This document shows, in pieces, positions 17,513 to 22,262 of a DNA stretch of 32,000 nt; positions within the stretch are counted from its first letter, which is position 1; each line of letters opens with the position of its first letter. Position numbers and translations under genes: made by a program. The DNA comes from Microcystis aeruginosa NIES-843 (GTDB taxonomy: Bacteria > Cyanobacteriota > Cyanobacteriia > Cyanobacteriales > Microcystaceae): the NCBI RefSeq assembly GCF_000010625.1, contig NC_010296.1:990001-1022000 (forward strand). The letters are read 5' to 3'. The notes below the pieces were generated by a model. It made no database searches. It was not told the origin of the DNA and saw only the letters and a program-made list of their open reading frames with translations.

Positions 17513-18895
17513 ATGATCAATCCCAACCTTCAATCTATCAAAAACCAACTCCACTTAGGACATTTAACACTGGATCAGAATGCCATCGGTTCAGCTTTAG
17601 CTAATCAACTTCAACAAGCCTTTTCTGGAGAAATATTACAACTTGAGGAAGTAAAACAACCCATCGCAGAAACGGATGATTCCCTGCATTTTCAAGCAAG
17701 AATACCTTCATTACTGGGGGTAAGACTGCAAGCTGTCGAAGGCATTTTTTTTGTCTATAACGGTCAGTTAGAGTACCTACTAAAAGCCACTCTCCCGAAG
17801 GTTTGGGATTTTTCTTGGTCTTATCCAGACCTTCCCGATTATACTAATTTTGGCAACTTAGGTCCAGATGCGGGTAATCAATCCTCACTTTTTTACGACT
17901 TACGATTTCCCGCTGATAAGCCGATGGTACTGGTTTTTTCTTCCCACAATTTTCAGAAAGATCAAACCCCAAAATCCTATCTCACATTACTAGATACTAC
18001 CTTAAATATTAGTAAAATCCATCAGGGGCTAAATTTTGTTTCAGAGATAGCACTTTCTGAGATGCCACTTTTAGATACACTAATAGAGTTTGCAGGTTAT
18101 CAAGATTTATCTTTACCTTTTTATGGCTATCTAAATCAACAACCTGAATACGAAGAAATACGCTTAGAGATAGAACTAAATTTTACTAAAACCTATGAAG
18201 ATATTTTCAGTTTTGGGATTTCTTCACTTGTCTTGCATACCAGCATCTCTCTTTATGCTAACTATATAGGATCAGGGATTAGCTTTTTAGGGGGAGTTAG
18301 CATAGGAACCTCAAAAACACCTAAAAACGTAGAGATAGTCTGGCCCGTAGGGAGTACACAACTCATCATCGAAAATGCAGAACCTATTCCTTTTCCCGGT
18401 TTCGACACTTTTACTAACTTATTAAGTGGTCATTTACCCAACAATAGCGATACCTTTCCTCTGGCAATAAACTCATTAAGTACCCTAGAAATTCGTGAAT
18501 TATCCCTACACTTATCCCTAAGTCCACTTAGGGTATCTTATATTGTCTTAAGTATCGGTCCGACAGCAAACTGGAATCAACCCTTATTAGGAAAAGCATT
18601 AACAATTGAGGATTTATTATTACGATGGGAAGTTAGTCCCGGAGATCCTACTCCTATTCGTTTTTATCTCCTATCCGCTTTTAATGTGGGAGGGGGTTTA
18701 GTAAACGCTTCAGCCGTCTTTCCCGACTTTGCTTTTTATGGTGAACTTGGCTTATATCAAACCATCGCCTTAGAGCAAATCATTGAGGAAATAATCCCCA
18801 ATGCTCACCTGCCACACATCTCCATATTAGACCTTGCGATAAGTGCTGATATCAAACGGGAGCATCTCACTTACGCGATAAGTAATTATACTTAG
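17513..18895 (+). CDS. N-terminal fragment of MITE-split giant protein D (448 native codons plus 12 MITE-encoded codons)
   Basis: The ORF reads into the MITE at 18858 and terminates inside it (..ADIK|REHLTYAISNYT*). It starts 35 nt after gene C. Confidence 0.8.
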   Translation: MINPNLQSIKNQLHLGHLTLDQNAIGSALANQLQQAFSGEILQLEEVKQPIAETDDSLHFQARIPSLLGVRLQAVEGIFFVYNGQLEYLLKATLPKVWDFSWSYPDLPDYTNFGNLGPDAGNQSSLFYDLRFPADKPMVLVFSSHNFQKDQTPKSYLTLLDTTLNISKIHQGLNFVSEIALSEMPLLDTLIEFAGYQDLSLPFYGYLNQQPEYEEIRLEIELNFTKTYEDIFSFGISSLVLHTSISLYANYIGSGISFLGGVSIGTSKTPKNVEIVWPVGSTQLIIENAEPIPFPGFDTFTNLLSGHLPNNSDTFPLAINSLSTLEIRELSLHLSLSPLRVSYIVLSIGPTANWNQPLLGKALTIEDLLLRWEVSPGDPTPIRFYLLSAFNVGGGLVNASAVFPDFAFYGELGLYQTIALEQIIEEIIPNAHLPHISILDLAISADIKREHLTYAISNYT

Positions 18896-19039
18896 CCTAA
18901 AAGCCACTCTTAATCGTGTCTTGGAACGAAATAGAGGCTTTTAAAGACTGCGTACATGGAGAATTAAAACAAGAATTACCCTCGAAAAGCCTATTTTTCC
19001 ACTAAGTATTTATGCTCATTGCAAAGGTGAGATGCTCCC
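18858..19039. mobile_element. 182-bp MITE copy 2, inserted in gene D
   Basis: Identical to copies 1 and 3. It has an 8-bp target-site duplication TATCAAAC (18850..18857 and 19040..19047). Confidence 0.95.
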
Positions 19040-22000: not shown

Positions 22001-22262
22001 AGGAACAACCAAAGCCATTAATCGCAGTAAATTACAATTTAGCCCTACTCCAATTAATAATGCTTATCATTGGCGAACGATTAGCACTTTTCAGGAGGAA
22101 CCCACTAAAAACATCCGTAACACTATTGTAGATAACGCAGTCAACAACACCAGAGATAATTTACTAAAAGCACTAAATTTGAAAAGTGAAGAAATTGATC
22201 TCAGTGCAACAATTGCCGATCATTTATTAGGTTCACCTAAAATTGGAGTTTTAGTTAATTAA
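19032..22262 (+). CDS. C-terminal fragment of MITE-split giant protein D (1071 native codons), containing a Pro/Thr/Ser linker and a large Gly/aromatic beta-rich domain
   Basis: The ORF begins at the ATG in the MITE right terminal repeat (ATGCTCCC). Removing the MITE and one TSD copy joins it in frame to 17513..18857, giving a protein of about 1519 aa. Confidence 0.8.
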   Translation: MLPIKQGLYAFEIEMASDWELNLGGTSILPLKYLHLEIEKNLGGSFATINSVLTIAGVDLILLATNANESGGWTFAGSTRPGQQIPIGLLIKDLVTTFGITDEGFPKAIEGLVVENIATYFNTETKNFYFTCESILEIEEEIIDVILQINITQQLDGSYKKHFDGHITIGSLKFALIFDTDQTSTKFLAAYHDDQTIKIKDLIGYIDSQLKEDIPEGLEISLKDALFAYAKQQTLTNFLFGLNIDGGINLSNLPLVGQEFPPNQTLKISLQILATKADFTAPELQALNTLYTDGGIKLPTTDINQRLDLIPSLQFGSEIQQLELPITINKQTGQIEGTTPPRDNNLSPPVVTPSSTPTPISDSTKWFTLQKSLGPVHFQRIGLKYQDSKIWVLLDASLNLAGLSLSLDGLAVNSPLNQFDPKFDLKGIGIDYKGSDTLEIGGAFLRTKITTQDGKTYDEYDGAAVIKFNVKAKTLNLSAIGSYAYFQGHPSLFIYALLDYPIGGPSFFFVTGLAAGFGYNRALKVPTIDQVATFPLVAEAVNPPPAEGSNSDQAARLTGELTKLRDYIPPETGQIFLAIGIKFTSFKLIDSFLLLTVAFGNRFELNILGLATLIAPPNVGAGVPPVAEVQLALKASFLPAEGFIGVIAQLTPNSYILSQACHLTGGFAFYGWFAPNVHEGDFVLTLGGYHPLFKVPDHYPKVPRLGLNWQVSSELYLKADAYFALTPSAIMAGGHLQATWNSGPLSAWFNAGADFLMSWKPYHYDISIYIDMGVSYTFHFFGTHHITVQLGADLHIWGPEFTGIAHIHLWIISFDVSFGSSASQAPTAIDWNEFKTSFLPAADAICTIAVKEGLVRKVNQDDKTDLGIINPKDFCLVTNLVIPAKKAVYTKDITLQDDQIQIAASNTQFGISPMEVKSEQLTSDLTISITRDGKYLSSAEFDKNFTCIPLFKKVPIALWGESLNPSLNGNQFIENTLSGLEIKPKKQPDTGTTKAINRSKLQFSPTPINNAYHWRTISTFQEEPTKNIRNTIVDNAVNNTRDNLLKALNLKSEEIDLSATIADHLLGSPKIGVLVN

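Follow-up and report, generated by a model that had tools for sequence, protein, structure and literature searches.

The 32,000-nucleotide (nt) stretch of Microcystis aeruginosa NIES-843 analyzed here (NC_010296.1, positions 990,001 to 1,022,000; hereafter the window, numbered from its first letter) contains two consecutive open reading frames (ORFs) of 460 and 1076 amino acids (aa), at 17513..18895 and 19032..22262 on the + strand, which the public annotation counts as two genes. We find that they are the halves of one gene of the DUF6603 family, termed gene D below, that was cut by the recent transposition of a 182-bp MITE (miniature inverted-repeat transposable element) and is most likely non-functional in this strain; we put the probability of this reading at about 0.88. 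For the reference genome it implies an annotation correction, with the deposited proteins BAG00981.1 and BAG00982.1 being parts of a single DUF6603 gene product. It would also single out NIES-843 as a natural candidate for loss of function of a rare operon with five genes for giant all-β proteins, and its comparison with strains carrying the intact allele could help assign a phenotype to that operon.

Gene D is a single gene split by a MITE

The MITE, read directly from the sequence, occupies 18858..19039 on the + strand and is flanked on its left (18850..18857) and right (19040..19047) by copies of an 8-bp target duplication, TATCAAAC, both delimited by the sequence and by the empty-site alignment described below. 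It starts with GGGAGCATCTCAC and ends with GTGAGATGCTCCC, which form a perfect 13-bp terminal inverted repeat (TIR) that continues imperfectly to ~45 nt; the region between 18820 and 19060 is laid out as GCTGA TATCAAAC / GGGAGCATCTCAC...GTGAGATGCTCCC / TATCAAAC AAGGG. Excision of 18858..19047, namely the MITE and one copy of the duplication, leaves an uninterrupted frame of 4560 nt, in which 1519 codons precede the only stop. The initial annotation, made from the letters alone, had proposed this element, its 8-bp duplication and the in-frame rejoining to 1519 aa, and all three are borne out.

Its further proposal that the MITE supplies both the end of the upstream ORF and the start of the downstream one also holds. 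The native 5' part of gene D (17513..18857, + strand) comprises codons 1-448 and the first base of codon 449, beyond which the upstream ORF runs 12 codons into the element (448 + 12 = 460 aa). The MITE-encoded tail, REHLTYAISNYT, and its TAG stop at 18893-18895 (together 18858..18895, + strand; R-EHLTYAISNYT-TAG) lie within the 5' arm of the predicted MITE hairpin, and the C-terminus of the N-fragment reads ...LAISADIKREHLTYAISNYT. The downstream ORF starts at an outward-facing ATG (19032..19034, + strand) in the 3' TIR, 8 nt from the MITE end, which is preceded by a Shine-Dalgarno (SD)-like AAAGG and shares the reading frame of the gene D 3' part (MLP-IKQGLYAF...); the latter extends from the remainder of codon 449 to the stop (19048..22262, + strand), and the N-terminus of the resulting C-fragment is MLPIKQGLYAFEIEMASDWELNLGGTSILPLK. 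By exact look-up of the deposited NIES-843 proteins, the 460-aa ORF is BAG00981.1/WP_012264625.1 ('hypothetical protein'), and the 1076-aa ORF is BAG00982.1/WP_012264626.1 ('DUF6603 domain-containing protein'), which begins MLPIKQGLYAFEIEM.... The DUF6603 domain (PF20248) is detected on the 3' ORF with a Pfam E-value of 1.8e-150 (502 bits versus a gathering cut-off of 27), and reconstructed gene D encodes a single polypeptide with an N-terminal 448-aa region fused to this domain.

Homologs span the junction and reveal the empty site

A search of the reconstructed protein against 5.8 billion proteins recovered an M. aeruginosa 'DUF6603 domain-containing protein' (P0001) of exactly 1519 aa, with 97% identity over 100% coverage. 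The 90% cluster of the deposited NIES-843 proteins also includes intact orthologs of 1519 aa (97% identity) in M. aeruginosa, M. viridis, M. panniformis FACHB-1757, and others. More distant full-length relatives, from Cylindrospermum, Trichodesmium, and metagenomes, measure 1448-1674 aa. Intact Microcystis orthologs read ...SADIKQGLYAFEIEM... across the junction, and in an alignment of 14 intact homologs, whose identity ranges from 97% down to ~34%, the segment ...LDLAISADIKQGLYAFEIEM... is colinear and belongs to one of the best-conserved blocks of the N-terminal half, and the motif ADIKQG at the junction is conserved. The junction thus falls in a region that full-length homologs span, and the alignment of the excised product with them, which the initial annotation had proposed as a check, bears out the reconstruction.

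The uninterrupted allele that it had suggested seeking in related strains is present in contig L015 (GCA_001895325.1), which encodes P0001 and retains synteny with the window across the entire operon, at ~97% DNA identity. Aligned by blastn, the window and L015 yield blocks that abut precisely at the MITE and overlap by 8 bp on the subject, and a three-way alignment resolves the empty site to a single TATCAAAC. The exact empty-site 26-mer was found in four metagenome contigs, and in the same metagenome scan no contig carried the filled MITE junction.

A separate search of the N-terminal 448 aa against 1.84 billion cluster representatives yielded only 32 relatives, mostly 1238-3173 aa long, in which the match stops near residues 440-476, and otherwise shorter or partial entries; none of the 32 is a free-standing protein that terminates at the junction. 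These results bear directly on the possibility that the two ORFs are natural genes and that the MITE merely sits in the spacer between them. The separate deposition of BAG00981.1 and BAG00982.1 speaks for it; against it stand the continuous reconstructed frame and its single 1519-aa orthologs, the position of the empty site within a conserved codon block, the fact that the two ORF termini at the break, a 12-codon tail and an MLP start, are encoded by the MITE itself, and the lack of homologs ending at the junction. Given the junction-spanning homologs, the empty site in L015, and the 0/32 count of stand-alone N-fragments, we reject this possibility, to which we grant a vanishingly small probability. 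The claim that the 460-aa and 1076-aa ORFs are not independent genes therefore stands, no natural two-gene homolog that breaks at the same point having been found.

Two short matches, P0007 and P0009, derive from a metagenome-assembled genome (MAG), where the break in the gene falls at another position. In this Microcystis sp. 53602_E8 MAG (contig L030, 3862..8194) the DUF6603 gene is present as pieces of 934 and 518 aa in overlapping frames, reflecting either a frameshift or a MAG error; were the break real, the DUF6603 gene would have been lost more than once.

The insertion is real and recent

Over their full length, six contigs of other datasets (L017-L022) match the window with 100% identity. 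One of them (L017) spans both MITEs of the operon (the second is described below) with all junctions, a second (L018) crosses the left junction and extends 139 nt into the element, and the short-read contigs L019-L021 end in or at the MITE, as is usual for short-read assemblies when they meet a repeat. Because independent assemblies reproduce its junctions, above all L017, the insertion is real, and it is so far known only from NIES-843-identical sequence. One might still suspect an assembly artefact, in which a repeat was misplaced into the gene, given that the MITEs are multi-copy and that several short-read contigs (L019-L021) end exactly at the element. However, a perfect 8-bp target duplication is the mark of transposition and not of assembly, and L017 (the whole element and both junctions) and L018 (the left junction) come from other datasets; we accordingly regard an artefact as extremely improbable. 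The NIES-843 chromosome, moreover, was finished by Sanger sequencing.

The insertion is recent, since its target duplication is perfect, the frame is otherwise intact, and all the other sampled Microcystis alleles are uninterrupted. The ratio of nonsynonymous to synonymous substitution rates (dN/dS) between reconstructed gene D and the L015 allele is 0.24, and the 4.5-kb frame bears no secondary lesion, which together suggest that purifying selection acted on the gene and that the hit is recent. The initial annotation had reached the same verdict by another route, arguing that all MITE copies are identical and the disruption is therefore very recent. The observation is correct, in that the three 182-bp copies in the window (12856..13037, 18858..19039, and 26088..26269) are mutually 100% identical, and the recency is upheld by the perfect duplication, the lack of a second lesion, and the restriction of the insertion to window-identical sequences. 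The identity of the copies is, by itself, a weak clock for the gene D insertion, because in Microcystis sp. T1-4 seven copies likewise show 182/182 identity. The latter finding suggests rather that the MITE family as a whole is young or recently spread; a single copy in NIES-4325 has one mismatch.

The element and its likely partner

The element combines the features of a MITE: it is shorter than 600 bp with TIRs, has a target duplication with an empty site elsewhere, and occurs in multiple copies lacking any transposase-sized ORF. The other two copies in the window have 9-bp target duplications, GATACAGAC (12856..13037) and CTCTGACCA (26088..26269, + strand), the family thus producing duplications of 8-9 bp. 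The 13-mer terminus occurs nine times in the window at ≤1 mismatch, against 0.04 expected. The predicted fold of the MITE transcript is a near-perfect long hairpin (-61.7 kcal/mol, z = -7.5) that is kept when the flanks are added. A simple scan found neither a + strand promoter-like site inside the MITE nor an intrinsic terminator or T-run after the hairpin; Rfam families have no matches across the whole window, and plasmid collections, phage collections, and IMG/VR contigs yielded no matches to the MITE.

A larger element of 1454 bp (25799..27252, - strand), about 7 kb downstream of the MITE in gene D, has the same 13-bp termini and an 8-bp duplication, CTTCTCTA. Comparison of this insertion sequence (IS) with the MITE shows the first 13 nt to be identical and 37-40 nt of subterminal sequence to be 81-86% alike. 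The third MITE copy, 26088..26269, is nested within it; without that copy the IS measures 1263 bp and matches the ISKra4 transposase (NF033572, E-values of 3e-49 and 6e-28) across three frames. We propose, from the shared termini, that the MITE may have been mobilized in trans by such an ISKra4-family (Mutator-like DDE) transposase, with this frameshifted IS representing its likely autonomous partner. The IS presumably belongs to the ISMich2 group, whose features in ISfinder are a length of ~1.25-1.4 kb, 8-bp repeats, and GGG ends. ISKra4/ISMich2 elements are Mutator-like (p-MULT 4), and the ISMich2-group transposase is made with a -1 frameshift (Guerillot et al. 2014, PMC3942029). The IS in the window resembles this group in being cyanobacterial with a coding region likewise split over frames, but differs in needing two frame changes and in being interrupted by a MITE, and it is probably dead. 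The filled-site/empty-site pair at gene D is a clean one and indicates that a MITE of the ISKra4 type has recently been active in Microcystis.

As a separate observation, mobile elements are nested four deep at 24180..28685, each disrupting the transposase gene of the one that encloses it. Outermost is an IS4-family (Tn5-like) element with TIRs of 46 nt (24180..28685); it holds an ISL3 element (25096..27979, GGCTCTTCG termini), inside which lies the ISKra4-family IS (25799..27252), itself the host of the MITE (26088..26269). A solitary sequence resembling the MITE 3' terminus, TGCCAAGGTGAGATGCACCC, lies at 6425..6454, ~100 bp upstream of where the first operon gene starts (6551). We found no left end to match it, and it probably represents the remains, in the operon promoter region, of a related element.

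Eight families, MaeMITEa-h, have been described in NIES-843, of which MaeMITEc is 182 bp long with 44 copies, and 11.8% of this genome consists of IS and MITE sequence with traces of element-caused mutation already noted (Kaneko et al. 2007, PMC2779907). The MITE in the window may be MaeMITEc, a candidacy based on length and strain: both come from the same genome, have 182 bp, and belong to the same class of short, inverted-repeat-flanked, multi-copy elements. For the disruption of gene D itself we found no report in the literature, and the deposited annotation still has two genes. A comparable case is known from the M. aeruginosa PCC 7806 ΔmcyB mutant, in which a 187-nt ISL3-type MITE, with identical copies in that genome, splits sbp into ORFs of 286 and 64 aa, and reverse transcription PCR shows transcription through the MITE (PMC11448079). 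The two elements are alike in having an 8-bp duplication and a stem-loop RNA and in converting a coding gene into two ORFs, but the sbp MITE has GGCTCTTCG termini and an ISL3 partner, whereas that in gene D has GGGAGCATCTCAC termini and an ISKra4-family partner. The gene D case differs further in that a 1519-aa gene is cut mid-protein and that a second copy is present in the same operon. MITE-mediated gene disruption is already well documented in Microcystis, and that of gene D is an ordinary event there.

Beyond cyanobacteria, Rickettsia palindromic elements are translated in frame within the host protein. The MITE of gene D is unlike these in that it has stops in the entering frame and splits the gene, with a hypothetical role for its outward start codon. 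Along with the Neisseria Correia and enterobacterial ERIC/IRU elements, they nevertheless resemble it as small, hairpin-forming, non-autonomous elements that lie in or near genes and can supply expression signals (see also the review PMC10969869).

Consequences for the gene D product

Relative to its intact orthologs, the reading frame of gene D is interrupted in the manner of a pseudogene. Translation from the native start would end 12 codons into the MITE and give the 460-aa N-fragment, and the full-length protein could no longer be made. Transcription probably reads through the MITE into the 3' part of gene D and gene E beyond it, because no T-run follows the hairpin, no + strand promoter-like site was found, and a different MITE of Microcystis is transcribed together with the gene that it interrupts (PMC11448079). 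The 1076-aa C-fragment would then be obtainable only from the MITE-terminal ATG, whose AAAGG motif, 4 nt upstream, is a weak SD-like signal at short spacing. In the predicted hairpin this ATG is paired within the 15-bp closing stem, both for the element by itself and with its flanks included.

Residues 1-860 were modeled with AlphaFold2 from a 22-sequence alignment (mean predicted local distance difference test [pLDDT] of 78), and the model is built of repeating units with a short helix and long antiparallel strands. The junction, K448|Q449, maps to the turn I447-G450 between strands 438-446 and 451-458, with a local pLDDT of ~90. According to this model the cut parts two hydrogen-bonded strands of one conserved sheet and does not fall in a domain linker. 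As the break lies in a β-hairpin turn inside a conserved sheet, the full-length protein is most probably lost and gene D non-functional in NIES-843. The predicted structure and RNA fold together lean towards inactivation and away from two functional polypeptides, the two outcomes that the initial annotation had left side by side.

No observation conflicts with the split of gene D as such; the points on the opposite side concern its functional consequence and the mobilization of the MITE. The terminal ATG is in frame with AAAGG 4 nt upstream of it, and ribosomes translating the upstream ORF have to open the hairpin's 5' arm to reach their stop codon and could thereby expose the ATG. A β-turn is the most forgiving position for fragment complementation, and the absence of degenerative mutations is equally expected from a very young insertion or from a tolerated split. 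As regards the transposition itself, shared termini are the sole link to mobilization by an ISKra4 transposase, and the only copy of the IS in the window is itself broken.

A second MITE in the operon and the terminal ATG

The MITE copy at 12856..13037 (+ strand; duplication GATACAGAC at 12847-12855 and 13038-13046) lies within codons 4-7 of a 218-aa gene whose native ATG is at 12836, and it is absent from the syntenic L015. Here too the gene resumes in frame at the MITE-terminal ATG, as a 217-aa PD-(D/E)xK nuclease-like ORF (13030..13683, + strand) that begins MLPIQTYPISK... versus the native MLSMIQTYPISK...; its product would, judging from the sequence, differ from the native one only in the first few residues. 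The annotated start codon of this 217-aa neighbor is thus MITE-derived.

The insertions compared were those in the window (restarts at 13030 and 19032) and those on the T1-4 contigs L002, L006, L011, L012, and L001. Among the identical copies examined, the ORFs leaving the 3' end of the MITE have 63, 104, 156, 25, 73, 217, 1076, and 20 codons, and those leaving the 5' end have 3-40. By in-silico excision, the ATG is in frame in four of five same-sense intragenic insertions, including one in a GTPase gene of T1-4 (binomial p ~0.045 versus an expectation of 1/3, in a very small sample). This excess may reflect a retention bias or a restart function, and we treat it as a lead and not as a result.

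These observations are the main support for a view in which the split of gene D is tolerated, with the 460-aa and 1076-aa polypeptides both made and reassembling, and the MITE 3' terminus (AAAGG and ATG) acting as a portable restart signal. They include the in-frame ATG at both intragenic insertions of the operon, the nearly native 218-aa product, the four-of-five count, and the far longer ORFs leaving the 3' end; the β-turn position of the cut and the location of the upstream stop codon within the 5' arm of the hairpin agree with it as well. On the opposite side, the informative insertions number only five from two genomes, the SD-like motif is weak with short spacing, the ATG is base-paired in a very stable predicted stem, and the cut falls inside a conserved sheet rather than a linker. 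On balance we judge a tolerated split to be unlikely. Its component step, in which the restart ATG is unmasked as translating ribosomes from upstream open the hairpin's 5' arm, seems to us similarly doubtful. In its general form, the MITE 3' terminus (…AAAGGTGAGATGCTCCC) would be a portable restart cassette whose in-frame insertions are preferentially retained, with gene D and the 218-aa gene as examples in which restart is coupled to upstream translation via hairpin melting. We offer this generalization tentatively, as one that is probably not correct; if it were, genes hit by the MITE would become split or N-terminally swapped yet be translated, instead of being killed.

The operon and its proteins

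Among the large genes of a conserved operon (6551..24140, + strand), gene D is the fourth. The operon comprises, in order, genes for 1332-aa, 735-aa LamG, 218-aa, 111-aa nucleotidyltransferase, 1068-aa, gene D, and 618-aa proteins; the product of gene D is an all-β protein of the rare DUF6603 family. The conserved set of ~1300-aa, LamG, ~1050-aa, DUF6603, and ~620-aa proteins is found in Microcystis and Cylindrospermum, and a metagenome contig has the same gene set in another order with a LamG protein that also contains a Peptidase_S74 domain. Beyond DUF6603, searches of the operon with Pfam, NCBIfam, PADLOC, and PHROGs recovered only LamG (735 aa), the nucleotidyltransferase (111 aa), and a weak nuclease-like match (218 aa).

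Neither sequence nor 20-sequence profile searches recovered relatives of gene D in the PDB, and a Foldseek search with the N-terminal 860-aa model found no match (best E-value 0.012, template modeling [TM] score <0.2). For the model of the DUF6603 part, Foldseek gave only local likeness to outer-membrane β-barrels, which the long meander sheets recall, and to the ApoB β-belt (TM ~0.2, root-mean-square deviation >20 Å), as well as weak tail-fiber matches in a viral library. Since these fold matches are only local or weak, we reject a classification of the gene D protein with porins, outer-membrane barrels, or phage tail proteins. We assign the operon to no characterized system. We found no mention of DUF6603 or of BAG00981.1/BAG00982.1 in the literature.

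In the distant operon on contig L025 (20830..23940), the LamG protein carries Peptidase_S74, the intramolecular chaperone of phage tail-spike and fiber proteins, which hints that the LamG component there may be fiber-like. The 218-aa and 111-aa genes (13030..14149) lie between the LamG and 1068-aa genes and are missing from the colinear Cylindrospermum operon (L023); the 111-aa protein is an MNT-type nucleotidyltransferase (PADLOC PDC-S09, E-value 1e-40), and the pair looks like a small module that invaded the operon. Within the 1332-aa gene, at 8050..8277, a segment of 114 nt (38 codons) is perfectly duplicated in tandem, as it is in L015.

Other features of the window

A 300-nt direct repeat of 96% identity (3921..4220 and 5669..5968) extends over two 150-aa ORFs (4024..4476 and 5772..6224), the second of which is a DUF29 gene, and an RTX-repeat ORF lies between the two. 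G-rich repeat blocks with units of GGGGTGT and GGGAAGT are present at 1728..1993 and 30299..30360, together with a tandem array of 7-nt units, (ATCTCCT)n; the GGGGTGT motif reappears near the opposite end of the window.

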